Assembly: GCA_035690485.1 (NCBI GenBank)
Contig: DASSKL010000008.1
Span: 62,586 to 126,585, forward strand
Length of the DNA: 64,000 bases
Direction: 5' to 3'
From: Mycobacteriales bacterium
GTDB lineage: Bacteria; Actinomycetota; Actinomycetes; JAFAQI01; DASSKL01
Within the stretch, counting starts at the first letter, position 1. Every line of letters starts with the position of its first letter. A program made the position numbers and the translations under genes. This document shows, one piece after another, positions 28,415 through 58,893 of the stretch. Under the pieces are notes generated by a model, which ran no database searches, had not been told where the DNA came from, and saw only the letters and a program-made list of their open reading frames with translations.

Positions 28415-30640
28415 TCAGAGCGACAGCTCGAACCAGACCGTCTTCGCCAGGTCCGTCGACTCGACGCCCCAGCGACGGGCCAGGTGCTCGATCAGGTGCA
28501 GGCCGCGCCCGCCCTCCGCCGCAGCGTTGGGTCGCCCGCGCCGCAGCGGTGCGTGCGGAGCCTGGTCGACCACCTCGACGCGGACGCCGTCGGTCGCGAG
28601 GCGCAGTGTGCGCAGGCGCAGCGACGTCCCCGCATGCCGCACCGCGTTGGTGACCACCTCGCTCACGAGCAGCGTCGCGGTCTCGACGAGCTCGTCGAGA
28701 CCCCATGACGCCAGCACGTGCTCGACGGCGGAGCGCGCCTGCGCCGGTGACTGGATGTCCGCGGGCAGCTCCTGCACGAGCTCGCTGATGGGCTGACCCT
28801 CGCCCGCGGGCAGGGTCCACAGCGCGAGCAGGGCGACGTCGTCGTCGGATGCGGGCTGCACCGCGAGCGCCGCCTCGCAGGCCGCCTCCGCCCCGCGCAC
28901 TCCGTCGACCGCGCGAGCCAGCCGGCGCATGCCCTCGTCGACAGGTAGGTCGGGACTCTCGACGAGCCCGTCGGTGTAGAGGAGCAGCAGCGAGCCGAGC
29001 GGGAGGGTGACGACGCGTTCGCCGTACGAACCGAGGCCGACGCCGAGCGGGGGACCTGGTTCGAGCGGCAGGAAGGCCGCCGGGTCGCCGTGCGACACCA
29101 GCAGCGGCGGCGGATGGCCGGCGCAGGCGAGCAGCGCGCGGTCGGTGGTCGGGTCCCACTCGACGTAGCAGCAGGTGACGATCAGCGCGTCGTCGAGGGA
29201 GGCCACGAGCCGGTCGAGGCGACCCAGGATGCCCGCGGGGCTGTGCCCTTCCAGGACGTAGCCACGGATGGCCGCCAGGACCTGCCCCATGACCGCGGCG
29301 GCACGGACCCCGCGGCCCATGACGTCGCCGACGACGAGCCCCACACACCCCGAGGGCAACGGCACGACGTCGTAGAAGTCGCCGCCCACCGACATGCCGC
29401 GGGTCCCGGGCAGGTAGCGCACGGCCACCTCGGCGCCGGCCACGGCCGGCAGGTCGACCGGCAGCAGCGACCGTTGCAGGGTGTGCGCGATCTCGCTCTG
29501 CTGATGGAAGAGCCGCGCGTTGTCGAGTGCCAGCGCGAGCCGGCCGGCGAGCTCCCTCATCTCGGCCAGGTCATCGGCACCGAGGGGCGGGCGCTGACCG
29601 ATCGTCGCCATGGTGAGCACGCCGAGTCCGCGCCCGTGCGCCCGCAACGGCAGGACCAGCCCCGACCCCAGGTCGATCTCGTGCAGGAGCGCGAGCTGCG
29701 CCGCCTCGTCGACCAGGTCGCGGTAGTCGTCATCGCCCCGCTGGAACAACCGCGGCAGCCCGCTGTCCATCGTCGAGCGGATGAGGTCGCCACCGCGCCC
29801 GTCGAGGGTCCGGGCGAATCCGTTCAGGGCGTGGCCGATGAGCGGGTCGGCATGGTCGCCGCCGGCGATCTGCCACGTGTCGTCGGGGCCGGCGAGCACG
29901 ACGATCGCCACGTCGGCCAGGCGGTCGGTCGCCAGCCGGCACAGCTCCTCGCACAGCGGCCGGGCCTCGGTCACCCCTGCGAACAGCCGCCCCGACTCGG
30001 CGAGCAGCTCCAGCCGGTCGCGAGAGCGCCGCTCGACCGAGATCATGCGAGCGCGGTGCAGCGCGACGGAGCACTGGGCGATGACGGTGTCGAAGAACGA
30101 GAGGTTGGCCGGGTCGGTCAGGAGCCCGCCGTCGGCGAAGCTGGCCGACAGCACGCCGAGGACCTCACCGCCCTGGACGAGGGGTTCGCAGACGTACGCC
30201 GCGCCGACACTCGCCCCGCCCAGCAGTCCGGGGTAGCGCTCGTCGCGCTCCGCGACGGACAGCAGGGTGACGCGCTGCGCGTGCAATGCGGACTCGGCAG
30301 CGGGCGCGCGCGCGTCGAGCGGCATGTCGGTGAGGCAGGCGATGACGTCAGCGGGGTAGCCGACGTGGCCCTGCAGGGCCAGCATGCCCCGCTCGCGATC
30401 GAGCATCCAGACCGCGCCGGCCACCGCGCCGAGCAGCGACAGTCCGCTCTCCACCATGGTGCGCACGACGGCTTCGACGGCGAGGGCGCCGAGCAGGTCG
30501 GCGCTGACGGCCTGGAGCCGGCGCAGCCGTTGCGCCACCTGCTCCGTCGAGGCGTGCGCGAGCTGCTCCTCGTCGAACACGCCGAAATCCTTCGGACGAA
30601 GCGGCTCCCCCTGCGGAGGCACCGGCGGCGACACGCTCAT
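28415..30640 (-). CDS. Multidomain regulator with N-terminal GAF-like region(s), a PP2C/SpoIIE phosphatase domain and a C-terminal HATPase_c (anti-sigma/RsbW-like) domain
   Basis: 741 aa. PP2C motifs (GGDFYDV..., VGDVMGRGV..., LLLYTDGLVE). The C-terminal ATPase pattern VSEVVTNAVRHAG... GRGLHLIEHLARRWG is like GHKL anti-sigma kinases. Confidence 0.8.
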   Translation of the reverse strand: MSVSPPVPPQGEPLRPKDFGVFDEEQLAHASTEQVAQRLRRLQAVSADLLGALAVEAVVRTMVESGLSLLGAVAGAVWMLDRERGMLALQGHVGYPADVIACLTDMPLDARAPAAESALHAQRVTLLSVAERDERYPGLLGGASVGAAYVCEPLVQGGEVLGVLSASFADGGLLTDPANLSFFDTVIAQCSVALHRARMISVERRSRDRLELLAESGRLFAGVTEARPLCEELCRLATDRLADVAIVVLAGPDDTWQIAGGDHADPLIGHALNGFARTLDGRGGDLIRSTMDSGLPRLFQRGDDDYRDLVDEAAQLALLHEIDLGSGLVLPLRAHGRGLGVLTMATIGQRPPLGADDLAEMRELAGRLALALDNARLFHQQSEIAHTLQRSLLPVDLPAVAGAEVAVRYLPGTRGMSVGGDFYDVVPLPSGCVGLVVGDVMGRGVRAAAVMGQVLAAIRGYVLEGHSPAGILGRLDRLVASLDDALIVTCCYVEWDPTTDRALLACAGHPPPLLVSHGDPAAFLPLEPGPPLGVGLGSYGERVVTLPLGSLLLLYTDGLVESPDLPVDEGMRRLARAVDGVRGAEAACEAALAVQPASDDDVALLALWTLPAGEGQPISELVQELPADIQSPAQARSAVEHVLASWGLDELVETATLLVSEVVTNAVRHAGTSLRLRTLRLATDGVRVEVVDQAPHAPLRRGRPNAAAEGGRGLHLIEHLARRWGVESTDLAKTVWFELSL

Positions 30641-30850: not shown

Positions 30851-32275
30851 ATGTTCACCAGCGCGGACGAGGTTCTCGCCTACATCTCCGATCACGACGT
30901 GAAGTTCGTCGATGTCCGGTTCTGCGACCTGCCGGGCGTCATGCAGCACGTCTCGATCCCGGCGGAGAACTTCGGGCGGCGGGTGTTCGAAGAGGGCCTG
31001 ATGTTCGACGGTTCCTCGATCCGCGGCTTCCAGCAGATCCACGAGTCGGACATGCTGCTGCTGCCCGACCCGACGAGCGCCGTGGAGGACCCATTCCGTC
31101 AGCACAAGACGCTGGTCCTCAACTTCTTCATCCACGACCCGTTGACCGGTGAGGCCTACAGCCGCGACCCGCGCAACATCGCCCGCAAGGCCGAGGACTA
31201 CGTGCGAGGCTCGGGCATCGCGGACACGGCCTACTTCGGCCCGGAGGCGGAGTTCTACATCTTCGACTCGATCCGCTACGACTCGACGCCGCACTCGACC
31301 TACCACTACATCGACTCGGTCGAGGCCGCGTGGAACACCGGCCGCGACGAGGACGGCGGCAACAAGGGCTACAAGCCGGCGTACAAGGGCGGATACTTCC
31401 CGACCCCGCCGACCGACCACTTCATCGACCTGCGCGCGGAGATGGTGCGCAAGCTGCTGGAGACCGGACTCGACGTCGAGCTGCACCACCACGAGGTCGG
31501 CACCGCCGGCCAGTCGGAGATCGGCTTCCGGTTCGGCACGCTGCTCAAGACGGCCGACAACCTCATGTGGTTCAAGTACGTCGTCAAGAACGTCGCGCTG
31601 GCCGCGGGCCACACGGTGACGTTCATGCCGAAGCCCATCTTCGGTGACAACGGCTCGGGCATGCACTGCCACCAGTCGCTGTGGAAGGACGGCGCCCCGC
31701 TGTTCTACGACGAGGTCGGCTACGCGGGGCTGTCCGACACTGCGCGCTACTACATCGGCGGCCTGCTCAAGCACGCGCCCGCGCTGCTCGCCTTCACCAA
31801 CCCGACGACCAACTCCTACCGGCGGCTGGTGCCGGGCTACGAGGCTCCGGTCAACCTGGTCTACTCGCAGCGCAACCGCTCGGCCTGCTGCCGGATCCCG
31901 ATCACCGGTACCAACCCGAAGGCCAAGCGCATCGAGTTCCGGGTGCCCGACCCCTCGTGCAACCCCTACCTCGCGTTCGCAGCGATGCTGATGGCCGGCG
32001 TCGACGGCATCCGCAACAAGATCGAGCCCCCGGAGCCGATCGACAAGGACCTCTACGAGCTGCCGCCCGACGAGCACGCCGCGGTCGCGCAGGTGCCCGG
32101 TTCGCTGGAGCGGGTGCTCGACGAGCTCGAGGCCGACCACGAGTGGCTGCTCGAGGGCGGTGTCTTCACGCCGGACGCGATCGACACGTGGCTCGACTAC
32201 AAGCGGGTGCACGAGGTCGACCCGATCCGGCTGCGCCCGCACCCGTACGAGTTCCAGATGTACTACTCCATCTAG
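30851..32275 (+). CDS. glnA: Glutamine synthetase type I (GlnA1-like)
   Basis: 474 aa. The full GSI signature, including the adenylylation-site region and N-terminus [29 protein letters not shown]. Confidence 0.95.
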
Positions 32276-32353: not shown

Positions 32354-35300
32354 GTGCCCCGGATTCTCCCGGTTGCGGTTGCCGCGGACGCGGCTGGCGT
32401 GGATCCTCAGCACATGGGGGGACCGACGGGCCGGGCGCAGCACGCTGCCCGGCTACGTCCGTACGTGGCCAGCCTTGTGCTGACCTGGCTCCGCGACTCG
32501 CCCCAGGCAACGTGGCGTGAGGTCGACGGCACGCTGGTCTTCGTCGACATCTCGGGCTTCACCAAGCTGACCGAGCGGCTGGCCGAGCGCGGCAAGGGCG
32601 GCGCCGAGGAGATGAGCGACATCCTCGACGCCACGTTCGGCGAGCTGCTTTGGGTCGCCTACTCCTACGGCGCGCAGCTGGTGAAGTGGGGCGGCGACGC
32701 GGTCCTGCTGCTGTTCACCGGAGACGGGCACGCGCCGCGGGCCTGCCGCGCGGCGTACGACATGCGGGCGACGATGCGCCGCATCGGCCACCTGCGCACG
32801 TCGGCCGGTGCCGTGACCCTGCGCATGAGCGTCGGCATCCACAGCGGCACGTTCCACTTCTTCCTGGTCGGCACGCTGCACCGCGAGCTGCTCGTCACAG
32901 GACCGGGCGCGACCACCACGGCCCGCATCGAGGGCGTCGCGGAAGCCGGCGAGATCGGCCTGTCCCCGCAGACGGCCGCCCTGCTGGCGCCGAACCTCGT
33001 CGGCGTGGAGAAGACGCCTGGCGTGTGGCTGCTGCGCGGCCGGCCACGGGTGCCGGAGACTCCGCGCCGGACGACGCTCGACCTGGCCGGCATCGACGTC
33101 GCGAGCTGCCTGACTGCACCGACCCGCGAGCACCTGCTGGCAGGTGGCACCGACGGTGAGCACCGGCAGATCGCGGTCGCGTTCGTGGAGTTCAAGGAGA
33201 CCGACGCCTTGCTGGCCGCCCAGGGTCCGGGCGCGCTGGCCGCCGCCCTGCACGAGGTCGTCTCGGTGACGCAGGACGCCTGCGCGCGTCACGGGGTGAC
33301 GTTCTGGGAGACCGACATCAGTCCCGACGGCGGCAAGATCATGCTCGTGGGCGGAGCCCCGCGCAGCACCGACGACGACGCCGGCGCGATGCTGGCGACC
33401 GCGCGCGACGTGGCCGACGGCGTGCGAACGCTGCCTTTACGCATCGGGGTCAACCACGGCCGGGTGTTCTCCGGCGACTTCGGCCCCGACTACCGGCGTA
33501 CCTACTCGGTCAAGGGCGATGCGGTCAACCTCGCCGCCCGCGTCATGGGCAAGGCAGCGCCCGGCGAGGTCTGGGCGACGGAGGGGGTCCTGGAGCACTC
33601 GCGCCTGTCGTTCGATGCCGAGAGGCTCGAGCCCTTCCTGGTCAAGGGCAAGGCCAGGCCGGTGCAGGCCTACCGGCTCGGCCGGGTGATGCAGGGACGG
33701 GTCGGGACCCCCGACGACGACCTGCCACTCATCAGTCGCGAACGCGAGCTCGCCGTCCTCCACGACGCGACGGCTGCCGCAGCCGCCGGCCGCGGCTGTC
33801 TGGTCGAGCTGGTCGGGGAACCGGGCATCGGCAAGAGCCGCCTCCTGGCCGAGCTCGCCTGCCGGTCACCCGACCTGCGGACCGTCGACGTCGGCTGCGA
33901 CGCCTACCACTCTTCGACGCCGTACGCACCGTTCCGCACGTTGCTGCGCGAACTACTGGACATCCCGTACGACGCCGAGCCGGGAACGGCGGGAGAGCTG
34001 CTCGCGACGCGGCTGCACGACACGGCACCGGACCTGCTCCAGTGGCTGCCCCTGGTCGCGGTCGTCGTCGACGCCGACGTCGCGCCCACGGCGGCGACCA
34101 GCGCGTTGGACGAGAAGTTCCGCAAGGGCCGGCTGGAGCAGGTGACCACCGAGCTGCTGCACCGGCTGCTTCCGAGCGCAACCCTCGTCGTGGTGGAGGA
34201 CGCCCATCTCGCCGACGACGCGTCCGCCGACCTCCTCGCCCACGTCGCCGAGAGCATCGCAAGCCGCCCCTGGGCCATGGTGGTCAGCCGGCACACCTCC
34301 CCCGGCGGTTTCGCGCCGCAGGCGCCGTCCGCCCGTATCGACCTGCTGCCGCTCGACGACTTCGCCGCGCAGACCATGCTCGCGATCGCCGCCGAGGAGT
34401 CGCCGCTCCCGCCGCACGAGTTCGCGGCACTCGCCCAGCGCGCCGAGGGCAACCCGCTGTTCCTGTTGCAACTGCTCGACGCCGTGCGTCGCACCGGCAG
34501 CGTGGACGAGCTGCCCGACTCCATCGAAGGCGTCATCACGGCGCGCATCGACCGGCTGCCCCCGCGGGAACGGCGCCTGCTCCGGACCGCGGCGGTGCTC
34601 GGCGTCCGGTTCGAACCGCGTGTCCTCGACGCGGTGCTCGACGCCGACGGCGACCGGCTCGAGGCCGAACGGCTGGCCGACTTCCTGCAGCTCGGCGACG
34701 ACGGGATGGTGGCCTTCCGCCATGCCCTGGTGCGCGACACGGCCTACGAGGGGTTGCCGTTCACCCGTCGGCGCGAGCTGCACGGTCGGGCCGGCGACGT
34801 GCTCGAGCGGCTGTACGGCGAGCGCACCGACGAACGCGCGGACCTGCTGTCGCTGCACTTCCTGCAGGCAGGTCGTTTCGAAAGGGCATGGCGCTATGCC
34901 CGCGTGGCCGGGCAACGCGCCGACGGCGCTTACGCCTACGTGGAGTCGGCCGTCTTCTACGAGCGCGCGCTCGCCGCCGCCCGGCGCAGCGCAGACGCCG
35001 ACACGGCGGCCATCGCGGACGTCACCGAACGCCTGGGCGACGCGCGCTCGCGGCTCGGCGAGTTCGCCCGGGCCGATGCGGCCTACGCCGACGCGGCGCG
35101 GGCGCTGCGTTCGCAGCCCCTGGACCGAGCCCGCATCTTCTACAAGCAGGCGGACATCTGCGTACGGGAGGGAGCGCACAGCCCGGCCCTGCGGCGGCTC
35201 AGCCGGGGGCTCACGGTCCTGTCCGACCAGCCGGGAATCGAGGCCCGGCGGCTGCGGGCCCGGCTCAGCTCCTTCTACGGACTCGTCCGGCACAACCAGG

Positions 35301-36271
35301 GGCGCGACCGCGACGCCGCCCGGTGGGGCCGCCGCGCCGTGGTCGAAGCAGAGACCTCGCGTTCGCCGGCGACCCTGGCGGAGGCGTTGCTGCATCTCGA
35401 CGTCTGCCTGACCTTCGCCGACGACGGGGGCGGCAAGAACGCGCGGCGGGCGCTGGGCCTCTGGCGCCGGCTCGGCGACTCCTGGCAGGAGGCCCGCACG
35501 CTGAACCAGCTGGGCATCCGCGCCTACTTCGGGGGGCGCTGGCCCGAGGCGCTCGCGCACTACCGCGACGCGGCGGCAGCCTTCGACCGAGCCGGCGACC
35601 AGTGGATGGCCTCCGTGGTGCGAGGCAACCTCGCCGAGACGCTGTCGGACCAGGGCCATGTCGAAGAGGCGATCGGCATCCTCGAGCTGACACTGCCGGC
35701 CTGGCGCGCGTCGAGCGCGCCCACCATGGTGGGCTTCGGCCTCAGCCTGCTCGCGCGCGCGCACGTGCGGGCCGGCCGGTTCGAGGAAGCGGCACCGCTG
35801 TACGCCGAGGCGCGCGCGTTGTTCACCGAGCACGGCGAGCCGGTCGAGGTGCTGGAAACCGATGCGCGCCGCGTCGAGTCGTCCGTGCTGCAGGGACGCG
35901 GCGTCGCGGTGTTGGGCGACGTCGCGGAGCTGCTCGAGCGATGCCATCGGCTGCCCGGCGGTGAGGGTCTGGCCGCCACGGCCCACCGCCTGCACGGGCT
36001 GGCGCTCGCCCAGCTGGGCGACCTACTCGAAGCCCGCGCGGCGCTGCAGCGCAGCATCGCCTCCGCCCAGCAGCGGGGCGCCACCCACGAGATCGTCTGG
36101 GCCCTCGACGCCCTCGATCAGCTGGCCGGCGCCAGTCAGCAGCTGCCGATCCCGAGCCAGTCGACCGAGCTGCGGTCGCTCATGGACGGTCTGGGCATGG
36201 TGCAGATCGCCCGCCCTGGCCCGACCGGTCACGCCATCGACGTGACCCGCGACGCAACCATCGCCCGGTAG
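32354..36271 (+). CDS. Tandem class III nucleotidyl cyclase (CHD x2) / AAA+ STAND ATPase / TPR-repeat protein
   Basis: CHD1 has VFVDISGFT, KWGGDAVLLLF and GIHSG. CHD2 has VAFVEFKETD, RIGVNHGRVFSGDFG and VKGDAVNLAARV. The P-loop is GEPGIGKSRLL. C-terminal TPR-like helical repeats. 1305 aa. The start is either GTG 32354 or ATG 32414. Confidence 0.8.
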   Translation: MPRILPVAVAADAAGVDPQHMGGPTGRAQHAARLRPYVASLVLTWLRDSPQATWREVDGTLVFVDISGFTKLTERLAERGKGGAEEMSDILDATFGELLWVAYSYGAQLVKWGGDAVLLLFTGDGHAPRACRAAYDMRATMRRIGHLRTSAGAVTLRMSVGIHSGTFHFFLVGTLHRELLVTGPGATTTARIEGVAEAGEIGLSPQTAALLAPNLVGVEKTPGVWLLRGRPRVPETPRRTTLDLAGIDVASCLTAPTREHLLAGGTDGEHRQIAVAFVEFKETDALLAAQGPGALAAALHEVVSVTQDACARHGVTFWETDISPDGGKIMLVGGAPRSTDDDAGAMLATARDVADGVRTLPLRIGVNHGRVFSGDFGPDYRRTYSVKGDAVNLAARVMGKAAPGEVWATEGVLEHSRLSFDAERLEPFLVKGKARPVQAYRLGRVMQGRVGTPDDDLPLISRERELAVLHDATAAAAAGRGCLVELVGEPGIGKSRLLAELACRSPDLRTVDVGCDAYHSSTPYAPFRTLLRELLDIPYDAEPGTAGELLATRLHDTAPDLLQWLPLVAVVVDADVAPTAATSALDEKFRKGRLEQVTTELLHRLLPSATLVVVEDAHLADDASADLLAHVAESIASRPWAMVVSRHTSPGGFAPQAPSARIDLLPLDDFAAQTMLAIAAEESPLPPHEFAALAQRAEGNPLFLLQLLDAVRRTGSVDELPDSIEGVITARIDRLPPRERRLLRTAAVLGVRFEPRVLDAVLDADGDRLEAERLADFLQLGDDGMVAFRHALVRDTAYEGLPFTRRRELHGRAGDVLERLYGERTDERADLLSLHFLQAGRFERAWRYARVAGQRADGAYAYVESAVFYERALAAARRSADADTAAIADVTERLGDARSRLGEFARADAAYADAARALRSQPLDRARIFYKQADICVREGAHSPALRRLSRGLTVLSDQPGIEARRLRARLSSFYGLVRHNQGRDRDAARWGRRAVVEAETSRSPATLAEALLHLDVCLTFADDGGGKNARRALGLWRRLGDSWQEARTLNQLGIRAYFGGRWPEALAHYRDAAAAFDRAGDQWMASVVRGNLAETLSDQGHVEEAIGILELTLPAWRASSAPTMVGFGLSLLARAHVRAGRFEEAAPLYAEARALFTEHGEPVEVLETDARRVESSVLQGRGVAVLGDVAELLERCHRLPGGEGLAATAHRLHGLALAQLGDLLEARAALQRSIASAQQRGATHEIVWALDALDQLAGASQQLPIPSQSTELRSLMDGLGMVQIARPGPTGHAIDVTRDATIAR

Positions 36272-36274
36272 GAC

Positions 36275-37288
36275 TCAGAAGAACTTCGGGTCCTGAGGGT
36301 TGCCGGGAACCTGGACGATCGCGTGCTGGGCGGCCTTCACCTTGAACAGGTCGCTGATGCATGGCTGGTCGCTAACCCCGGCGGCAGCGAGCGCGCTGCA
36401 CAGTGGGAGCGGCCCCTGCGTTGGACTGGTCTCCGACTGGGGCGGCAGGAGCGTGCCGTCGCTGCCTTCGGTGTAAAACCCGTAGGGCGCCGACATGCAG
36501 ACTTCCCAATGGGGCGTGCCGTTGTCCGTATAGGCGTTCGTCGTCTGCTTGTCCCAGGCCAGCTCCACCGACTTGCTCCCGGTCGTCGAGTCGGAGCTGA
36601 GCATCTGGTCGACGACGACGTACTCCGGTCGCGTTTCCGACACGCAGGCCTCGCTGTTCGGCGCGACGTTCATGAATAGTGAGCCGACCCTGGTGTCGAA
36701 CGCCACGGTGCCAGACGTGTGCACCCCGCTGTCCGTGCAAGGGCTGGCGGTGCACACGATGCCGGCCACGGTCAGCTGCGGAGCCGACCCGCTCAACAGG
36801 AAGTCGTTGCCCGACCCGGAGAAGTCGTTGGACTGCTTGACCGCCGAGCCGATCGTGTAGGTGCCGTCGGTGGTCGGGGTGAACGACACCGGAATGACGA
36901 CGGAGCCCGAGTCCGGCACGCCCGAGCTGCTGGACGACGAACGCAGCTGCACGACGAACTGCGAAGCGCTGCTGGTCACCGTCGCGGAGAAGTCGGCACA
37001 TGCGGGCACGCTCGGGCAGATGAGGGCGCCCACGTTAGGAGTCCCGCTGTAGGGCAGCGCGAACGTGATGTTGGCAGATGCGAAGTACTGGTTGGCGGTG
37101 ATGTTGCTCAACGTGACCTGCACCGTGGTTTGCGCGCCGGCCGGCACGTTGGTCGGCGAGATGCTCGCGGTGTAGAACTTCTTGGCCGCTTGCGCGGATG
37201 CAGGAGCACCGACGAGGGTCGCTGCCACCAGGGCGGCGACTCCGACGACCACGGCTGTGCCGAGGTGCCTCCGACGACGTGCTCTCAT
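36275..37288 (-). CDS. Secreted protein (signal peptide) with Cys-containing C-terminal domain ending in QDPKFF
   Basis: N-terminus MRARRRRHLGTAVVVGVAALVAATLVGAPASAQA. Ser/Thr-rich beta-sandwich-like middle. C-terminal domain shared with 37446..38765 (W.VCM.APY.F ... PC.S ... VPG..QDPKFF). Confidence 0.65.
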   Translation of the reverse strand: MRARRRRHLGTAVVVGVAALVAATLVGAPASAQAAKKFYTASISPTNVPAGAQTTVQVTLSNITANQYFASANITFALPYSGTPNVGALICPSVPACADFSATVTSSASQFVVQLRSSSSSSGVPDSGSVVIPVSFTPTTDGTYTIGSAVKQSNDFSGSGNDFLLSGSAPQLTVAGIVCTASPCTDSGVHTSGTVAFDTRVGSLFMNVAPNSEACVSETRPEYVVVDQMLSSDSTTGSKSVELAWDKQTTNAYTDNGTPHWEVCMSAPYGFYTEGSDGTLLPPQSETSPTQGPLPLCSALAAAGVSDQPCISDLFKVKAAQHAIVQVPGNPQDPKFF

Positions 37289-37445
37289 AGCCGCCCCCCT
37301 CCGATCGGCGGGTCACCGCCGCACGGCACGCATGCTGGACCGTTGGCCAGGCCGCGACAAGAGCACGGCCGGACCAGTCTCGTCAGACGGGATCGCCCGC
37401 GCAGCCACGAAATACCGCCTACCGGTCGGAACGTCGAGACCCACG

Positions 37446-38765
37446 TCAGAAGAACTTCGGGTCCTGGGCGCTGCCCGGCACGAGCACCTCGGCGAACTGC
37501 TGGCCCGAACCCGTCTTCCGCAGGATCGACACGCAGGGCCCCGGCGCCGCGGCCGGCAGCGCCGCGCAGCCAGGCAGCAGACCGACGTACGACGTGCCGG
37601 CGTGGGTTGCCGGCACCAGGGCGCCCTGCCCGTCGGCGGCCTGGAAGGCGTACGGCGCCTGCATGCACACGGGCCACTGCGACGCGCCGTTGTTGGTCTC
37701 CTGCTGGGTGAACTCCTTGGTCCACGTGAGGTCCACCGTCTTTGCGGAGTCGGACATCACCGTGACCTCGACGCCGCTCGGACGCGCCAGACCGGCGCAG
37801 GGTGCGGCACTGTCGACCAGCCCCAGCGAGATCGTCGAGGGGGTGTCGGCCGACGCGCTCACGGTCGACATCGGCTGACCGGTGAGCGTCAACGTGCAGG
37901 GCGACTGGTCGGGCGGGCAGGTCTTCTGCGCGAGGGGCGCGGTGACGACCGCCGGTTGGGAGACGAACCGGTTCGGCAGCCAGCCCTGCTCCACCCCGAG
38001 CTCGATCAGCCGGGAGAGGAAGCCCGCCATCTCGTCGCGCTGCACGCCCTGGTCCTGGTTCGACAGCGTGCCGCCGGCCAAGCCCGGCGCGCCGACGAAG
38101 AGCCCCAGACCCGCGACGGCGTTGAGGTAGGGGTTCTCGAAGACCCCGCCGTCGTCGTCGGCGAAGTAGTCCTGACCGGACGCTGCGGGCGTCGCGCCCG
38201 AGAAGACCTTCAGCGCGTTGTAGATGAACTTCGACATCTCTCCACGGGAGACGATCGCGTCGGGTGCGTAGCTCCCGTCCGCATAGCCGCTGACCATCCC
38301 CGCGTTGGTGAGCGCGTCGACCGCGCTCCGGAACTGCTGCGGGATGCCGGCCGCGTCGGTGTAGCTCGTCGCGGGTGCGGCCGTCGACCAGGCATGACCG
38401 GCCGCGGTGCCCAACCGGTAGAAGAATGCCGCCATCTGGTCACGCAGCACCGGCGCCGTCGGGGCGTAGGTCGTCGCCGAGGTGCCGTCGGTGACGCCGT
38501 AATCGGCGGCACAGTAGATCTGCAGCCGGAAGAAGTCTCTGTCGACGTCCGTGAAGCCCGGGTTGGTCAGCGAGGCAGGGGGGCAGGCTGTGCCGGTGTC
38601 GATGGGAGCGGGCGGCAGGGCCGTCTGGTTGCCGGGAAAGCTGCCCGAAGCCCACGCCGAGCTGATCGGGCTGACCCCCAGGGCGACGACCAGGGTGCCC
38701 GCAAGGACCCCCGCGGCCGCGGCCGGCAGCACGCCACGCGCGCTCGACCTCCGAACGAGCTTCAT
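37446..38765 (-). CDS. Secreted protein with three SLH (S-layer homology) repeats and the shared C-terminal QDPKFF domain
   Basis: Start MKLVRRSSARGVLPAAAAGVLAGTLVVALGVSPISSAWA, preceded by GGGGGGA. Three ~50-aa repeats fit SLH (FTDVDRDFFRLQIYCAADYGVTDG...PVLRDQMAAFFYRL, YTDAAGIPQQFRSAVDALTNAGMVSGYADGSYAPDAIVSRGEMSKFIYNAL, and a third ending QRDEMAGFLSRLIEL). Confidence 0.7.
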   Translation of the reverse strand: MKLVRRSSARGVLPAAAAGVLAGTLVVALGVSPISSAWASGSFPGNQTALPPAPIDTGTACPPASLTNPGFTDVDRDFFRLQIYCAADYGVTDGTSATTYAPTAPVLRDQMAAFFYRLGTAAGHAWSTAAPATSYTDAAGIPQQFRSAVDALTNAGMVSGYADGSYAPDAIVSRGEMSKFIYNALKVFSGATPAASGQDYFADDDGGVFENPYLNAVAGLGLFVGAPGLAGGTLSNQDQGVQRDEMAGFLSRLIELGVEQGWLPNRFVSQPAVVTAPLAQKTCPPDQSPCTLTLTGQPMSTVSASADTPSTISLGLVDSAAPCAGLARPSGVEVTVMSDSAKTVDLTWTKEFTQQETNNGASQWPVCMQAPYAFQAADGQGALVPATHAGTSYVGLLPGCAALPAAAPGPCVSILRKTGSGQQFAEVLVPGSAQDPKFF

Positions 38766-38928
38766 GCAAGTCCCCCCTACCGGGGAGCGTGGGCCGCACC
38801 CCAGAGGCATCCTCAGGTCTCGGTGATCACCGCACAACCGAAACGCAGAAGACGCCGCCTCAGACCGGGGCAATCGACCGCACCGCCGGACGAGTCAGGC
38901 GCACCGGGCGATCCCGCCCGGCAAAGTC

Positions 38929-40671
38929 CTAACCCGCGCTGGACTCGGGGAACACCTGCTCGGCTACCGCGGCCTGCTCGGGCACCGCGACGGAGGGACG
39001 GTAGGTGGGGTGCGTGCGCTCGAGCTGTCGGCGTACACCGCTGACGGTCGCGGGCGAGAGCGGCGCCTCGTTGAGCGCATTGAGGAACTCGTCGCCGGCG
39101 ATGCGCAGCAGCCGGCAGCCGTCGCCTGCCCGCACGGTCGCGGTCCGGGGGATGCGTTCCAGCAGGCCGATCTCGCCGAAGTACGCCGGCGCCTCGAGCA
39201 TCCGCAGGAACTGCTCGCTGACCCCCTCGCCGCGAGCCGACACCTGGACCGACCCGTCGAGCAGGACGTACAGGTCGTCGGCGGCCTCCCCCTCGGTGAC
39301 GATCGGGAGGCCGGGCTCCACCAGCATGTCGCTCCCGGTGCGGGCCAACCGCTCCAACACCGGACGGGAGGCCGAGGCAAAGATGCCGAGCCGTTGGAGC
39401 ACCGCGATCCGCGGTTCCAGGGTCTGCAGCAGGTGCACCGCCTCGCGGTCCATGCCGGCGAGCATCGGGTAGCAGCCGACGACGAGCAGCGGCAGCGCGG
39501 CGCCGTAGACGAGCAACGTGCCGTTGGTGCCCAGACCGTGCAGCAGCGCCGGGGTGATCAGGGCACCGATGGAGATCCCGCCGAGCACGAGGGCCCAGAA
39601 GGCGCCGAACACCCGGGCGATCAGGTCGGGTGCCAACGTGCGCTGCAGCGCGGTGATGGCGAGGGTGTCGACGACGAGCGTGCCACCGCCCCGGATGACC
39701 TGCAGCACGAACGCGATCTCCGGCGAGTGCACCGTGGCCATCACGGCGGTGGGCACGCAGTACACCGCCATCCCGCCGACGATCATCAGCGCCAGCCGCG
39801 GCGAGGCGGCCAGCCGGTTGACCAGCCCGGCGGCGAGGACACCGCCGACGCCGAGCGCGGCCAGCAGGTAGCCGTAGCCGTCCTCGCCAGTTCCGAGCCT
39901 GGTCTTGCTCAGCACGGCGAACAGCACCGTGTCCGTGCCGTAGAAGAAGCTGGCCAGCACGCTGAACCACACGAGGATCGCGGTGCGGCGGGAGGCGACG
40001 ATTGCCCGGTAGCCCACGCGGATCTGCTGCAGCGGCCCGCCGTCCTGGGTCACGTCCGTGGGCACGCTGCGGACGCCGGCACGGCTGACCAGCGCTGCGG
40101 AGACCACGAACGTGCCCGCGTTGAAGGCGATGACGCCGGCCGGGCTCACCGCCGCGAGCATCGCCCCGCCCAGCGCAGGGCCGACGAGGATCGTCAGGTT
40201 GTCGATCGTGCCCTTGAGACCGTTGGCCGCCGCCAGGTCCTTCTCGCCGACGACCTGTGGGATCAGCGCGGACGTCGCGGGGTCGTACGCCGACATCAGG
40301 ATCGAGTTGAGCGCGCCGATCGCGATGACGACGGCCGAGTGCGCGTGCAGGGCCATGGCGGTCGCCATCGCCGCCATCAACCCCGTCGCCGTCAGGTCGC
40401 AGGTGACCAGCACCCGCACCCGTTCGAAGCGCTCGGCGACGACGCCGGCGTAGGAGCTGAAGAGCAGGGCGCTGAGGAACCTGCCGAGGGTGGCCGCGGC
40501 CACCCACGCCGGGGAGTGCGTCTGCTGGTAGACGTAGACCACGAGCGCGACGTTGTAGGCCCAGCTGCCGGTTGCGGAGACGGCGAGGGCGCCGCTGAGC
40601 AGGCGGAAGTCCCGATGCCGCAGTGCACCGCGGTAGGTCCCCCGAGCCTGCCCGGCTACATCCGCGGTCAT
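38929..40671 (-). CDS. MFS transporter fused to a C-terminal cyclic-nucleotide-binding (CAP-family) domain
   Basis: About 12 TM in the first ~430 aa. The C-terminal ~130 aa carry the cNMP motifs FGEIGLL and RTATVRA. ATGA overlap with the upstream MBL gene at 40668..40671. Confidence 0.8.
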   Translation of the reverse strand: MTADVAGQARGTYRGALRHRDFRLLSGALAVSATGSWAYNVALVVYVYQQTHSPAWVAAATLGRFLSALLFSSYAGVVAERFERVRVLVTCDLTATGLMAAMATAMALHAHSAVVIAIGALNSILMSAYDPATSALIPQVVGEKDLAAANGLKGTIDNLTILVGPALGGAMLAAVSPAGVIAFNAGTFVVSAALVSRAGVRSVPTDVTQDGGPLQQIRVGYRAIVASRRTAILVWFSVLASFFYGTDTVLFAVLSKTRLGTGEDGYGYLLAALGVGGVLAAGLVNRLAASPRLALMIVGGMAVYCVPTAVMATVHSPEIAFVLQVIRGGGTLVVDTLAITALQRTLAPDLIARVFGAFWALVLGGISIGALITPALLHGLGTNGTLLVYGAALPLLVVGCYPMLAGMDREAVHLLQTLEPRIAVLQRLGIFASASRPVLERLARTGSDMLVEPGLPIVTEGEAADDLYVLLDGSVQVSARGEGVSEQFLRMLEAPAYFGEIGLLERIPRTATVRAGDGCRLLRIAGDEFLNALNEAPLSPATVSGVRRQLERTHPTYRPSVAVPEQAAVAEQVFPESSAG

Positions 40672-41558
40672 AGCGCAGCCACCTCTCCGATAGCGGGTGC
40701 GACCGGGGCGGCGCTCGGGGCCGCGGGAAGGTCGAACACCCGACCCTGCCGGCCGGCCTCGACCGGCACGGCGGCCCCGCGCTGCCCGGCGACGATGTCG
40801 TCTATCTGGTCGTCGGTGCGGGTCGGGTCGTGGTGGAACAGCACCAGCCGGCCGACGCCGGCCGACTCGGCCAGGCGGACGGCGTACTCCACGGTCGAGT
40901 GGCCGAGGAAGGCCAGCCGCGGGAACTCCGCCGCGACGTGCTGCGCGTCGTGGACGAGCACGTCGGCGCCGTCGGCCAGCTCCAGCGCGGCGTCGTGCAG
41001 GACCCCGTCACCCTGCTCCCCTGGCGACCAGGCGCTGGGCCCGTGGTCGGTGACGTAGGCAAGGGTCGACCTGCCGTCGGTGATCCGGTAGCCGATCGTG
41101 CGGCCGCCCTTGTGCGGGATCTCCCGCACCAGCACGTCGAAGCCCTCGACGCAGAGGCGCCCCGGCTCGATCCAGTCGAAGGTCCACCCGTCGCCGAGCT
41201 GCTCGGGCGTGATCGGGAAGTACGGCGGCCGCATGATGCCCGACAGCACCTCGACCGGGTCGCCGGGCTGTGCGGGCCCGCGCACGTCGACACGGGCGCC
41301 CGGCAGGAAGCCCGCACCGAAGAACGGCAGGCCCTGCCAGTGGTCCCAGTGCAGGTGGGTCAGCAGGATCGTGCCGGCGAACGGCTGCCCGCCGAGCAGC
41401 GCGGGCACCTCGCGCAGGCCGGTGCCGGCGTCGAGCAGCAGCGTCGGCGCTGCACCGTCGGCCGCCACGGCCACGCAGGAGGTGTGACCTCCGTAGCGGT
41501 CGTAGGCCGGGCCGGGCGCGGGCGTCGAGCCGCGGACACCGCACAGCCGCACCCGCAT
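40668..41558 (-). CDS. MBL-fold metallo-hydrolase
   Basis: HxHxDH motif LLTHLHWDHWQG and further His/Asp positions (HDAQH, HHD). 296 aa. Confidence 0.8.
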   Translation of the reverse strand: MRVRLCGVRGSTPAPGPAYDRYGGHTSCVAVAADGAAPTLLLDAGTGLREVPALLGGQPFAGTILLTHLHWDHWQGLPFFGAGFLPGARVDVRGPAQPGDPVEVLSGIMRPPYFPITPEQLGDGWTFDWIEPGRLCVEGFDVLVREIPHKGGRTIGYRITDGRSTLAYVTDHGPSAWSPGEQGDGVLHDAALELADGADVLVHDAQHVAAEFPRLAFLGHSTVEYAVRLAESAGVGRLVLFHHDPTRTDDQIDDIVAGQRGAAVPVEAGRQGRVFDLPAAPSAAPVAPAIGEVAAL

Positions 41559-41648: not shown

Positions 41649-44624
41649 TCAGCCGTAGAAGAGCCGCTCGACGACCGTGCGCGCGTGCCGGGTCACCCGG
41701 CGGTAGTCCTCGACCAGCTCGCCGCCCGACTCGCCCGGCCGGCCGACCAGCCGCGCGACCCCCGAGAGCACCCGGCTGTCGCTCGGCACGGTGTCGGAGG
41801 GCCGGCCGCGGACGAGCATCACGGCGTTGCGGATGCGCGACGCCGTCCGCCAAGCGTCCTCGAGCACCTGCGCGTCGGCGCCGTCCAGCAGCCCGGTCTC
41901 CCGGGCGACCTCCAGCGCACGCAGCGTCGAGGTCGTGCGCAGGGCGGGCACGTCGTGCGCGTGGCGCAGCTGCAGCAGCTGAGAGGTCCACTCGACGTCG
42001 GAGAGCCCGCCGCGCCCGAGCTTCAGGTGCAGAGCCGCATCGGCACCGCGCGGGATGCGTTCGGACTCCATCCGCGCCTTGAGCCGTTTGATCTCCCGTT
42101 CGGCCGCGGCGTCGAGCCCTTCGGCGGGGTAGCGCAGCGGGTCGACCAGTGCGGCGAACCGGGCGCCGAGCTCGGCGTCACCCGCGACGAAGCACGCGCG
42201 CAGCAGGGCCTGGCTCTCCCACACCGACGACCAGCGCCGGTAGTACTCCGCGTAGGAGGCGAGGCTGCGCACCAGCGGCCCCTGCTTGCCTTCCGGCCGC
42301 AGGCCCGCGTCGACGACCAATGGCGGATCGGGCGCGGGCACCGCGAGCAGGCGGCGCATCTCCTCGGCCACGTCGTGCGCGGCCTGGGTCGCCGCCGGGT
42401 CGTCGGGGCCGTCGTAGACGAACAGCACGTCGGCGTCGCTGCCGTAGCCCTGCTCGCCGCCGCCGAGCCGCCCCAGGCCGATGACCGCGAGCCGCACGCC
42501 GAGCGCCCGCCGGCGATCCCCCGCCACCTCGCGCAGCGCCGTGTCGAGGGCCGCGGACAGCGTCGCCGCCACGACGTCGGTGAGGGCCGCGCCGACCTGC
42601 TCGACGTCGAGCCGTCCCAGCACGTCGGCGCTGCCGATGCGCACCAGCTCCTGACGGCGCAGCCCGCGGGCCGCGGCGACAGCGCTCTCCCAGTTGTCGT
42701 TGCGGCGCACGGCGGAGAGCAGCTCCGCCTCGAGCGCCTCGCGCGGCCGCGGCGTGAGCTCCTCCTCGTCGGCGAGCAGCGCCACCGCGGACGGTGCGCG
42801 GCCAAGCAGGTCGGCGACGAACCTGCTGGTGGCCAGGAGCCGCGCCAGCCGTTCGGCCGTGGCGCCCTCGTCGCGCAGCAGCCGCAGGTACCACGGCGTG
42901 GACCCCAGCGACTCGCTGACCTGACGGAAGGACAGCAGCCCCGCGTCAGGGTCGGGCGCGTCGGCGAACCAGCCGAGCATCGCCGGCAGCAAGGTGCGCT
43001 GGATCGCGGCTCGTCGACTGACGCCGGTCGCCAGCGCCTCGATGTGACGCAAGGCGGCGGCGGGATCGGCGAAGCCCAACGCCTCGAGCCGGTGTCGCGC
43101 GGCATCGGTGGTGAGACGGGTCTCCTCGGTCGGCAGCCGGGCCACGGCCGAGAGCAGCGGCCGGTAGAACAGCTTCTCGTGCAGCCGCCGGACCTCGCGG
43201 GCATGGGTCGCGCGGTCCTGCTCGAACTCCGCGACCGGGTCGCGGCGGTAGCCCAGGGAGCGTGCCAGCCAGCGCAGGTCGCGCCCGCCGGTCGGCACCG
43301 TGTGGGTACGCCGCAGCCGTTGCAGCTGCAGCCGGTGCTCCGTCGTACGGAGGAAGCGGTAGGCCGCCGCCAGCGCACGCGCGTCGTCGCGACCGACGTA
43401 ACCGCCGTCGGCGAGGGCCGCCAACGCCACCAGCGTGGTGCCGCTGCGCAGCGACTCGTCGCCGCGGCCGTGCACCAGCTGCAGCAGCTGCACCGCGAAC
43501 TCCACGTCGCGCAGGCCACCCGGACCGAGCTTGATCTCGCGGTCGGCCTCCGCACGCGACACGTGTTCGACGACCCGCCGCCGCATGGCCTGCACGTCCT
43601 CGACGAAGTGCGGCCGCTCCCCCGCCGTCCAGACCAGCGGCCGCACTATGTCGGCGAACTCACGTCCGAGCGCAAGGTCGCCGGCGACCGGCCGCGCCTT
43701 CAGCAGCGCCTGGAACTCCCACGTCTTCGCCCACCGCTTGTAGTAGGCCTCGTGGCTGGCGAGCGTGCGGACGAGCGGCCCCGCCTTGCCCTCGGGTCGC
43801 AGCGCCGCGTCGACCGGCCAGATCGCCCCCTCGGCGGTGATCCGGGAGCAGGCCCGCATCATGCCGCGGGCGAGCAGCGTCGCGGTCCGTAGCGCGGCGT
43901 CCTCGTCGACGCCGTCGGCGGGTTCGGCGACGAAGAGCACGTCGACGTCGCTGACGTAGTTGAGCTCCCGGCCGCCGCACTTGCCCATGCCGATGACCGC
44001 GAGGCGGCAGGGGACGGCGTCGTGGGGCAGCTCCGCGTGGGCGACGGCCAACGCCGCCCGCAGCACCGCAGCGGCGAGGTCGGCAAGCTCGCCGGCGACA
44101 TCCTCGACGGCCAGCCCGGCCGCGATGTCGCGGGCGGCCAGGGTCAGCAGCGCGCGGCGGTAGGCGACCCGAAGGGCGTCGTAGGTCGCCGGCGACGCGT
44201 CCCGTGCGGGCTCGTCCGGGCCCGCGGCGCCGACCGCCGCGAGCAGCTGAGCCTGCAGCCCCAGCACCGTGGGCCGGCTGGCGAGCACCGCGTCGTCGAC
44301 GAGGACCTGCCAGTCTCCGGGGTGCCGGACCAGGTGCTCGCCGAGCGCGCTGCTGACACCGAGCACGCCGGTGAGCCGCCGCCGAAACCCCCCGTCGGCG
44401 CGCAGATGCTGCCGCAGGTCGGGACCGCTCGCCGCCTCGACGATGCGCACCAGCGAGGCGAGCGCGACGTCGGGGTCCGCCGCGTCGGCGAGCGCGTCGG
44501 CGACCGGCCCGTCGGGCACCAGCCCGACCGACGTCAGCAGCTGCGCGGCGCGGTCGGGGTCGAGGAAGCCGGCCCGCGCCAGCGCTCCCTCGTCGGTGGC
44601 GCCACGGCCGAGCTCGGCGGCCAC
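41649..44624 (-). CDS. glnE: Bifunctional glutamine synthetase adenylyltransferase/adenylyl-removing enzyme GlnE
   Basis: 991 aa with two nucleotidyltransferase domains (GKCGGRELNYVSDVDVLFV and GRLGGGEQGYGSDADVLFV) and GlnE-specific linker regions. Confidence 0.9.
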   Translation of the reverse strand: MAAELGRGATDEGALARAGFLDPDRAAQLLTSVGLVPDGPVADALADAADPDVALASLVRIVEAASGPDLRQHLRADGGFRRRLTGVLGVSSALGEHLVRHPGDWQVLVDDAVLASRPTVLGLQAQLLAAVGAAGPDEPARDASPATYDALRVAYRRALLTLAARDIAAGLAVEDVAGELADLAAAVLRAALAVAHAELPHDAVPCRLAVIGMGKCGGRELNYVSDVDVLFVAEPADGVDEDAALRTATLLARGMMRACSRITAEGAIWPVDAALRPEGKAGPLVRTLASHEAYYKRWAKTWEFQALLKARPVAGDLALGREFADIVRPLVWTAGERPHFVEDVQAMRRRVVEHVSRAEADREIKLGPGGLRDVEFAVQLLQLVHGRGDESLRSGTTLVALAALADGGYVGRDDARALAAAYRFLRTTEHRLQLQRLRRTHTVPTGGRDLRWLARSLGYRRDPVAEFEQDRATHAREVRRLHEKLFYRPLLSAVARLPTEETRLTTDAARHRLEALGFADPAAALRHIEALATGVSRRAAIQRTLLPAMLGWFADAPDPDAGLLSFRQVSESLGSTPWYLRLLRDEGATAERLARLLATSRFVADLLGRAPSAVALLADEEELTPRPREALEAELLSAVRRNDNWESAVAAARGLRRQELVRIGSADVLGRLDVEQVGAALTDVVAATLSAALDTALREVAGDRRRALGVRLAVIGLGRLGGGEQGYGSDADVLFVYDGPDDPAATQAAHDVAEEMRRLLAVPAPDPPLVVDAGLRPEGKQGPLVRSLASYAEYYRRWSSVWESQALLRACFVAGDAELGARFAALVDPLRYPAEGLDAAAEREIKRLKARMESERIPRGADAALHLKLGRGGLSDVEWTSQLLQLRHAHDVPALRTTSTLRALEVARETGLLDGADAQVLEDAWRTASRIRNAVMLVRGRPSDTVPSDSRVLSGVARLVGRPGESGGELVEDYRRVTRHARTVVERLFYG

Positions 44625-55374: not shown

Positions 55375-55652
55375 GAGCTCGTCGGCGAGGGGGTCGGCGG
55401 CCACAGAGGAGGACCGTACGCTGCCGGCGTGGACTTCGTGCGCGTTGTCTGCGTCGACGGGCCGCTGGCCGGTGCCCAGGTGTCGTTCCCGGCCGGCGAG
55501 CGGAAGTGCACGCTGCACGACCCGGTCGCGGGGCCCGTGCGCTACGAGCTCACCGGCAGCCTGTCCGGCCCGCTGCCGGGAAACCTGCAGACCGCTCGCT
55601 TCCTCGGACCCGGCGAGTAGCCTGGGCGCCTTCGCGCGCGCTGGGAGGCTGC

Positions 55653-58854: not shown

Positions 58855-58893
58855 GAGGCTCCCTCTCTGAAGGCTGCGGCCCATGATGGAGGC

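Follow-up and report, generated by a model that had tools for sequence, protein, structure and literature searches.

In the present study, we analysed a block of five genes in a 64,000-nucleotide stretch of DNA from a Mycobacteriales bacterium (GenBank assembly GCA_035690485.1, contig DASSKL010000008.1, positions 62,586 to 126,585 of the forward strand), hereafter called the window. The block, at positions 32354 to 41558, lies between the glutamine synthetase (GS) gene glnA1 and the GS adenylyltransferase gene glnE. It encodes a class III nucleotidyl cyclase, two secreted proteins, a major facilitator superfamily (MFS) permease with a cyclic nucleotide monophosphate (cNMP)-binding domain and a metallo-β-lactamase (MBL)-fold hydrolase. 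We consider it likely that this block represents a copy of a cassette, conserved among actinobacteria, which makes, senses and breaks down a cyclic nucleotide, the hydrolase serving as the phosphodiesterase (PDE). As a conserved genomic module the cassette is well supported and recurs in many soil actinobacteria, and the make, sense and break reading rests on conservation, not on enzymology. In bacterial cyclic AMP (cAMP) signalling many cyclases are known, and few phosphodiesterases or characterised non-transcriptional effectors.

The observations that carry this reading are the domain content, the intact ligand- and metal-binding residues, the fold relations and the association of the genes across distant lineages. 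It is suggested that a cytoplasmic cyclase resembling soluble adenylyl cyclase (sAC) would make a 3',5'-cyclic nucleotide, most likely cAMP, in a C1-C2 pseudo-heterodimer whose output would be set by its region of signal transduction ATPase with numerous domains (STAND) and tetratricopeptide repeats (TPR). The nucleotide would bind the C-terminal CAP-type domain of the putative DHA3-type MFS exporter and alter its transport activity. The MBL protein, a predicted binuclear metallo-hydrolase translationally coupled to the transporter gene, would hydrolyse the nucleotide to the nucleoside 5'-monophosphate and so end or buffer the signal. A secreted Ig-like, disulfide-rich protein, whose gene lies between those of the transporter and the cyclase, would be a fourth member with a place at the cell envelope. 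The five genes of the block are as follows.

32354-36271, forward strand: class III cyclase with tandem cyclase homology domains (CHD), AAA_16 and TPR, sAC-like (Pfam); start probably nearer 32414
36275-37288, reverse strand: sec1, secreted β-sandwich protein with a signal peptide, an Ig-like N-terminal domain and a Cys-rich C-terminal domain
37446-38873, reverse strand: sec2, secreted S-layer homology (SLH) protein (Pfam SLH 1.4e-14); likely start 38765 (439 aa)
38929-40671, reverse strand: MFS-cNMP transporter (MFS_3 and cNMP_binding, Pfam)
40668-41558, reverse strand: MBL-fold hydrolase (Lactamase_B_2, Pfam), candidate cyclic-nucleotide phosphodiesterase

An earlier annotation, made from the letters of the window without database searches (the sequence-only reading), had placed five genes between glnA1 and glnE, and this layout with its domains was confirmed by the listing of open reading frames and by Pfam. 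The same holds for the tandem-CHD cyclase with a STAND ATPase and a TPR array, for the permease with a C-terminal CAP-type domain (matches to MFS_3 and cNMP_binding) and for the stop codon of the MBL gene, which overlaps the start of the MFS gene as ATGA, with GGAGAGG upstream. The overlap argues that hydrolase and transporter are co-expressed. Furthermore, the proposal that cyclase, cNMP-binding transporter and hydrolase form a functional unit is supported by the conserved association of their genes, described below.

The MBL family is large, with more than 7,600 matches, and an identity of about 60% is kept between several classes of actinobacteria and Dormibacterota. The hydrolases so conserved come from metagenome-assembled genomes (MAGs) labelled Acidimicrobiales, Motilibacteraceae, Streptosporangiaceae, Nitriliruptorales and Dormibacteraeota. 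The gene neighbourhood was studied in 80 genome loci centred on the MBL gene (median pairwise identity of the hydrolases 56%, 42 clusters at 70%). Genes were called by a caller based on G+C content at third codon positions (GC3), which reproduced the public calls on locus L001, and the neighbours were scanned against Pfam and against domain hidden Markov models (HMMs) built for the analysis. A cNMP-binding domain was encoded at position -1 from the MBL gene in 36 of 79 loci by HMM and 34 of 77 by Pfam, and by only 5 of 429 genes four or more positions away (Fisher p 1e-27). A CHD cyclase stood at position -2 in 22 of 74 loci against 8 of 429 at four or more genes away (Fisher p 6e-14), and the second gene upstream was a response-regulator/Guanylate_cyc cyclase in 21-23 of 73. 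Within three genes of the hydrolase, a class III cyclase was present in 38 of the 80 loci and a cNMP or CHD gene in 52.

These rates bear directly on the explanation that four or five unrelated accessory genes were juxtaposed by chance. Actinobacteria encode many cyclases and cNMP-binding proteins, and some random adjacency is to be expected. However, in the same loci cNMP and CHD genes occur at a background rate of 1-2% for each gene, whereas the rates at the specific neighbour positions are 46% and 30%, and the association persists despite changed gene order and partner architecture. Moreover, the cassette holds the sole CHD and cNMP genes among the 47 genes of the window. Chance adjacency is strongly disfavoured by these background rates, and we give it next to no weight.

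The cNMP partners of the hydrolase had at least eight architectures. These were an uncharacterised soluble domain of about 200 aa with a cNMP-binding domain, MFS_3 with cNMP, MFS_1 with two cNMP domains, two cNMP domains with Peptidase_C39 and an ATP-binding cassette (ABC) domain, Pyr_redox_2 with cNMP, cNMP alone, MFS with cNMP and patatin, and a CRP-type regulator with a helix-turn-helix (HTH) domain. The nearby cyclases had three (response regulator-CHD, CHASE2-CHD, and two CHDs with AAA_16 and TPR). Since the cyclic nucleotide is the only feature common to these neighbours, the pattern is that expected of a cNMP-degrading enzyme, and the tie of the whole MBL family to cyclic-nucleotide signalling is well supported. 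In Dictyostelium, the MBL-type PDEs GbpA and GbpB (class IIb) are fused to two activating cNMP-binding domains, sensors of the nucleotide that the enzyme cleaves (PMC11988041), which gives a precedent for joining such an enzyme to cNMP sensing. The likeness is one of domain description: there a single polypeptide carries both parts and the cNMP-binding domains activate catalysis, whereas here two separate, neighbouring genes are involved and the binding domain forms part of a transporter or is joined to modules of other kinds.

Several further arrangements were seen around the MBL gene. A second conserved triad, in L007, L015, L034 (5487-8840), L041, L052, L063 and about 30 further loci, consists of a divergent response-regulator/CHD cyclase of about 455 aa, a soluble protein of about 340 aa and the hydrolase. 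Its hosts are MAGs labelled Acidimicrobiales/Acidimicrobiaceae, Nitriliruptorales/Egibacteraceae, Actinomycetes and occasionally Solirubrobacterales. In the triad the MBL gene often lies within 10 bp of the gene for the 340-aa protein or overlaps it. In this protein an N-terminal domain of about 200 aa, so far uncharacterised and bearing the motifs SWIPSEA, RFRFAN, FVQTxGGRTG, PRHWxYD and SPWG, precedes a C-terminal cNMP-binding domain, and a flavin adenine dinucleotide (FAD) amine-oxidase-like gene often follows the triad (13 of 79). Bacteriocin-type exporters with two cNMP-binding domains, Peptidase_C39 and ABC adjoin the MBL gene or stand within three genes of it in L071:4689-7967 and L053:14244-16844, a further pairing of cNMP-domain transporters with this hydrolase. 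In a Motilibacteraceae MAG (L170, 4531-16542), a 12-kb island of cNMP genes encodes an MFS_1-cNMP-Patatin protein of the Rv3728/Rv3239c type (1040 aa), together with the hydrolase, an MFS_3-cNMP protein, a CRP-family regulator and a CHD-AAA_16-TPR cyclase.

The reciprocal analysis began from the transporter. The 580-aa protein matches MFS_3 (PF05977; 2.8e-26, 92.5 bits against a cutoff of 27) and MFS_1 (1e-25) in Pfam, and it has the MFS core of DHA3/MFS_3 exporters such as EntS, Mef, Tet(V) and Tap. In NCBIfam, TIGR00900 (H+ antiporter) reached 6e-42 and 144 bits against a subfamily cutoff of 319.6, which is a match at superfamily or family level only. Residues of about 418-544 match cNMP_binding (PF00027) at 1.3e-16 and 60.7 bits against a cutoff of 27.5. 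This CAP/PKA-type domain retains the Gly-Glu...Arg-Thr-Ala pattern, and in its phosphate-binding cassette, FGEIGLLERIPRTATV, G499, E500, I501, G502, R509, T510 and A511 are invariant in 15 homologues, so that the conserved contacts of the domain stood up to the alignment that the sequence-only reading had called for. The nearest solved relatives include the cyclic-nucleotide-binding domains of PKA-R, PKG and SthK, and the cassette aligns with those of PKA-R. Judged by PKA, PKG and CRP, the R-T-A-T motif is compatible with either cAMP or cyclic GMP (cGMP). By these sequence features, the transporter is a DHA3/MFS_3-type permease, probably an exporter, whose cytoplasmic C-terminus forms a cyclic-nucleotide-binding domain.

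At least 2,100 homologues of the MFS-cNMP protein were found, both domains being present in 120 of the 120 best listed, and the family is conserved at 50-60% identity across more than 2,000 of them. In a set of 80 metagenome loci centred on this gene, the rate of adjacency was taken from the 46 whose two flanks each reached 1.2 kb or more, and in 22 of these the MBL gene adjoins, in three orientations. The pair whose co-occurrence had been proposed for checking is thus widespread. Overall, the MBL gene stands beside the transporter gene in 29 of the 80 loci; it lies upstream and on the same strand in 9 of these, is divergent in 18 and lies downstream in 2. Where the flank was at least 5 kb, a STAND-type cyclase was present in 15 of 20 loci, and a cyclase in 10 of the 10 that also had the hydrolase. 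The order and orientation of the window (hydrolase, MFS-cNMP, secreted protein, convergent tandem-CHD cyclase) recur in L087, L089, L094 and L095, whose proteins are 54% (MFS), 57-61% (MBL) and 42-43% (cyclase) identical to those of the window.

The transporter has relatives of other kinds. Membrane proteins of the MFS-cNMP-patatin type, Rv3728/Rv3239c, were reportedly described from M. tuberculosis by McCue et al. in 2000. Both types are MFS permeases fused to a cytoplasmic cNMP-binding domain, whereas the protein of the window is of the MFS_3 (DHA3) kind, has 580 aa and is devoid of a patatin/NTE domain. MFS_1-cNMP-Patatin proteins share clusters with the hydrolase in L170 and L171. To our knowledge, neither type has been characterised, and we know of no test of an MFS-cNMP fusion for cyclic-nucleotide-regulated transport. 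In addition, a second, divergent MFS-cNMP paralogue (29-31% identity) was found in L091, L143, L149 and L163, and in three of these (L091, L143 and L163) cNMP-binding transporters stand on either side of the MBL gene.

The hydrolase itself was then compared with known MBL enzymes. The only Pfam match is the generic Lactamase_B_2 (PF12706; 3e-16, 60.1 bits against a cutoff of 27), in keeping with the αβ/βα sandwich of the MBL fold. Its predicted model has a predicted local distance difference test score (pLDDT) of 86.6, and the top fold matches are YhfI (6KNS) and BA1088 (1ZKP), with 17-20% identity in the structural alignments. The nearest fold neighbours are thus these atypical class-II PDEs and RNase Z, followed by the PhnP family, yeast PDE1 and phage-type Apyc1. 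In NCBIfam the sole full-length match is NF041851, "cyclic nucleotide-degrading phosphodiesterase" (residues 1-277 to model positions 1-253 of 253), and 16 of the 16 family members tested align with it over their full length, likewise below the cutoff. The motif T67-H-L-H-W-D-H73 (THLHWDH) is present, so the HLHWDH that had been proposed to fit the HxHxDH core was found, and it conforms to the [T/S]HxHxDH pattern of the atypical class-II PDEs. Family members have T, S or G at the first position, followed by an invariant HLHWDH; the expected metal ligands are all invariant in 16 relatives, and PP(H/Y)FPI, IPHKGG and FHH(D)PxRTD are invariant motifs specific to this family.

Under the name "atypical class-II PDEs", Thomson et al. 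placed B. subtilis YhfI, M. tuberculosis Rv1339 and CpdA of C. glutamicum together, with the motif [T/S]HxHxDH, and RNase Z is considered their probable ancestor (PMC9293780). The hydrolase of the window is likewise a small single-domain Lactamase_B_2 protein with this motif, but it stays ten-fold below the cutoff of NF041851, which places it in a separate family rather than among the orthologues, and it has invariant motifs of its own and a gene linkage to cNMP-binding proteins and cyclases. As an orthologue of Rv1339 it was rejected on score (39 against 400 bits). Among the HMMs named by the sequence-only reading, Guanylate_cyc, AAA_16, TPR, MFS_1, cNMP_binding and Lactamase_B_2 matched, but PDEase_II (PF02112) had no match to the hydrolase at E<=0.01, and a canonical class II PDE, defined by a PF02112 match and an HxHLDH motif, was rejected. 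The link to class II PDEs drawn there therefore holds for the full-length NF041851 alignment and the YhfI/BA1088 fold, but not for PDEase_II or the NF041851 cutoff. We know of no report that links the Rv1339 gene physically to genes for cNMP-binding proteins or cyclases. Judged on sequence and predicted fold, the hydrolase is a PDE-clade MBL, related to the known MBL-type cNMP PDEs and outside their curated family, and it is probably an unrecognised cyclic-nucleotide-degrading enzyme from an unnamed family.

The resemblance to RNase Z is real and gives the main rival explanation. On that account the hydrolase would be the output of the signal and not its terminator, an RNase Z/ELAC-like nuclease or other phosphodiesterase switched by the neighbouring cNMP-binding protein and acting on RNA or another phosphodiester. 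The best local sequence scores are indeed to RNase Z (TIGR02651 at 45.7 bits; ZiPD 2CBN at E 1e-8 by phmmer against the PDB), and by eye HDAQ and GHST of the hydrolase stand opposite HEAT and GHSS of ZiPD. The commonest partner is the soluble cNMP protein of about 340 aa, so close or overlapping in gene position that it resembles a regulatory subunit. However, the matches are confined to about 70 C-terminal residues (183-251 for TIGR02651, with a cutoff of 292.95 bits, and 182-251 for the PDB matches), while the PDE model covers the full length, and RNase Z identity was rejected on coverage and score. The heterogeneous partners (transporters, a redox enzyme, a transcription factor) fit a shared small-molecule ligand better than a specific subunit, the genomic context is cNMP signalling rather than tRNA processing, and the characterised small MBL enzymes of this clade (YhfI/Rv1339/CpdA, Apyc1, PDE1, GbpA/B) hydrolyse cNMPs. 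The sequence-only reading had held that clustering with non-PDE subfamilies would speak against a PDE; with a partial, sub-cutoff match to RNase Z and YhfI/BA1088 as best folds, the PDE reading was left standing, and we regard a cNMP-controlled output nuclease as unlikely.

The cyclase fits the first step of the make, sense and break cassette. In Pfam it has two stretches of Guanylate_cyc (1e-24), AAA_16 (1.1e-17, 65.5 bits) and TPR_12 (1.6e-18, 67.1 bits), arranged as a C1-like domain at about 48-242, a C2-like domain at about 263-451 and then the AAA_16 STAND ATPase and the TPR repeats. According to public gene calls the protein has 1285 or 1268 aa, and its start would accordingly lie near 32414 (ATG) rather than at 32354. 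Among solved structures, human ADCY10 (4OYA/4CLF; E 2.4e-16) is the closest relative and aligns over both domains. C1 keeps FVDISGFT and KWGGD, the equivalents of D47 and of K95/D99 of ADCY10 (two metal Asp and Lys95), and in C2 GDAVNLAAR stands opposite GQKVNLAAR of ADCY10 with Asn and Arg kept, while FVEFKET replaces the metal Asp motif. Since C1 has the metal Asp residues and C2 lacks them, the cyclase reads as a single-chain pseudo-heterodimer with one active site.

The characters of an sAC-type enzyme, a tandem C1-C2 with metal Asp and Asn/Arg followed by a C-terminal STAND P-loop module and TPR, are therefore present. Lys95 and Arg176 are the bicarbonate-site residues of ADCY10. The Lys95 equivalent is conserved, and an Arg stands one position after R176 in an alignment counted by hand; because of this offset, bicarbonate regulation of the cyclase cannot be assumed. 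In full-length sAC, a STAND P-loop module is predicted after C1-C2 (PMC12802110). The cyclase of the window shares this order with ADCY10 and the bacterial sAC-like cyclases, and differs from ADCY10 in being bacterial, of about 1,285 aa and displaced by one residue at the R176 equivalent. In the M. tuberculosis STAND cyclases Rv0386, Rv1358 and Rv2488c, a single CHD is combined with a LuxR HTH.

Several points weigh against the make, sense and break reading and should be set beside the evidence above. The hydrolase scores 39.3 bits against the curated cutoff of 400 for NF041851, the only named PDE family that it resembles, and no characterised member of its own family was found. A cNMP or CHD gene is absent within three genes in about one third of the MBL loci, in particular those titled Solirubrobacterales or -aceae, and the hydrolase is absent from about half of the MFS-cNMP loci. 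The GC3-based gene calls overlook some genes, and the shared ancestry of the loci means that the Fisher p-values overstate their independence. Furthermore, the ADCY10 alignment stops short of the Lys334 region of C2, which bears on the choice of adenine or guanine, so that the product may be cAMP or cGMP.

A bolder reading joins several of these proposals. The hydrolases would form a large, phylum-wide PDE family, distinct from Rv1339/CpdA and from class III, and could be the main cNMP clearers of many uncultured members of the Actinomycetota and Dormibacterota. In this cassette the hydrolase would work alongside what would be the first cyclic-nucleotide-gated MFS exporter. This exporter might expel the nucleotide itself, export and hydrolysis would together clear the signal of the sAC-like cyclase, and the secreted protein would act outside. 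We put this forward tentatively, as a doubtful extension. The conserved cassette and the cNMP link of the unnamed MBL family appear to be undescribed in searchable papers, and the components are of known kinds. If the family consists of cNMP phosphodiesterases, thousands of proteins listed as "MBL fold metallo-hydrolase" would gain a function and many actinobacterial lineages a missing signal terminator. The four-gene cassette would also be a compact system for studying synthesis, sensing, degradation and transport output jointly.

The combination of cyclase, cNMP-binding membrane protein and MBL could also be that of an anti-phage system of the Pycsar or CBASS type. The STAND-TPR cyclase would then sense infection, the membrane protein would be an abortive effector and the hydrolase would keep the basal signal low. 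STAND NTPases with TPR sensors are frequent in defence systems, and in PADLOC the cyclase domains matched PycC (1e-8) and the cNMP domain matched PycTIR (5e-9), both weakly. The paper on Apyc1 states that this MBL-fold enzyme degrades Pycsar signals (PMC9117128), and its structures 7U2R and 7U2S are among the structure matches of our hydrolase. A CAP12/Pycsar-effector TIR domain was also present in 2 of 77 upstream neighbours of the MBL gene, a hint of defence-type cNMP effectors beside a few members of the family. However, the PADLOC matches are generic and at domain level, with none for the hydrolase or the secreted proteins, and membership was rejected. Far from being a short pore-forming effector, the transporter is a complete MFS_3/MFS_1 permease whose homologues number more than 2,000, and the MBL family, about 60% identical across classes, has stable syntenic core contexts unlike patchy defence islands. 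The cyclase architecture is also that of housekeeping enzymes such as mammalian sAC (PMC12802110). With no mobile features around the block (see below), we judge a defence system very improbable.

The surroundings of the block were examined next, and the flanking genes of the gln locus are as follows.

30851-32275, forward strand: glnA1, glutamine synthetase (Pfam Gln-synt_C 4e-138 and Gln-synt_N); flanking context, outside the cassette
41649-44624, reverse strand: glnE, GS adenylyltransferase (Pfam GlnE twice and GlnD_UR_UTase twice); flanking context
44628-45968, reverse strand: glnA2; flank

The same block was found on several JGI and Logan contigs. A Pfam scan of its left flank gave sucB-like, lipB, lipA, DUF4191 and RDD genes and then glnA1, which is the order of M. 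tuberculosis Rv2215-Rv2220. Because the left flank reproduces that order, the five genes are additional to the mycobacterial glnA1/glnE/glnA2. No tRNA gene was found in the window and no direct or inverted boundary repeats around the 9-kb block, and no mobility gene was seen among the genes scanned against Pfam. In the absence of a tRNA gene and boundary repeats, and with a GC content similar to that of the flanks, origin as a mobile element was rejected. No sigma-70-like promoter site was obtained by a promoter scan, which is uninformative in an actinobacterium at the GC content of the window, about 72%.

The sequence-only reading had gone further and taken the placement in the gln locus as a sign of cAMP input to nitrogen control. 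The cassette would then feed its signal into the control of glutamine synthetase, either by way of a transcript shared with glnA2-glnE or by moving a nitrogen compound out of or into the cell. The MBL gene does begin 90 bp after glnE on the same strand, where read-through is possible, and a relative with 81% identity retains glnE-MBL-MFS-sec1-cyclase. This is the only relative with the position beside glnE, however. In the relatives at 65-68% (the Motilibacteraceae MAG and L171, whose contig ends 1.6 kb past the MBL gene), the hydrolase lies among other cNMP genes with no glnE or glnA alongside on the available sequence, and glnA or glnE was found near the cassette or its components in 0 of 160 related loci (L007-L166) within fetched flanks of up to 8 kb on each side. 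A terminator-like hairpin, though weak, follows glnE (41646-41629), and the core components travel jointly and independently of the gln genes. Since the gln position is confined to the closest relative found, nitrogen coupling is unsupported: the placement is lineage-specific, the link to nitrogen control looks incidental, and we regard it as quite improbable. The tempting step from a gln-locus position to nitrogen control is hereby corrected.

The module is neither self-contained nor confined to this genome, and one secreted protein is a conserved member too. Proteins of the sec1 family have a signal peptide, an N-terminal Ig-like domain with the motif KQSNDFSGSGNDF, and six invariant cysteines; the Cys-rich C-terminal domain of sec1 itself ends in QDPKFF. 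The family had no match in Pfam, and a fold search gave generic Ig-like, cohesin and pilin matches in addition to YcnI, which fixes the β-sandwich fold only. By iterative HMM search, sec1-like proteins were found between transporter and cyclase in about 15 independent loci, including one in a Solirubrobacteraceae MAG, and sec1 is thus the fourth conserved member of the cassette.

The second secreted protein is of another standing. Public calls start sec2 at MKLV... (439 aa, 37446-38765). The protein combines a signal peptide, a cell-wall-binding SLH domain and, at its C-terminus, a domain with a paralogue in sec1. The two had been described as paralogous secreted proteins, which is true of a C-terminal domain that spans about 120 aa (42% identity, E 6e-16) but not of the rest, where sec2 alone has SLH. 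Their genes share a 36-nt repeat (86%) at the 3' ends. As sec2 is absent from the 81%-identical relative (L167-L169), it looks like a lineage-specific and apparently recent addition carrying a duplicated C-terminal domain. It is an SLH domain protein in a genome labelled Mycobacteriales, and such domains are mostly known from monoderm S-layer proteins and proteins anchored to cell-wall polymers.

Two further features of the neighbourhood were recorded. Between the RDD gene and glnA1 lies a gene (28415-30640, reverse strand) for a 741-aa protein with GAF, SpoIIE (PP2C phosphatase) and HATPase_c_2 domains, a second gene that the Rv2219A-Rv2220 order of M. tuberculosis lacks; binding of small ligands is among the abilities of GAF domains. 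Genes for a GH38 α-mannosidase and a prolyl oligopeptidase/PD40 protein (52447-55518 and 56917-58884, both reverse strand) lie downstream of the gln region and are ordinary genes.

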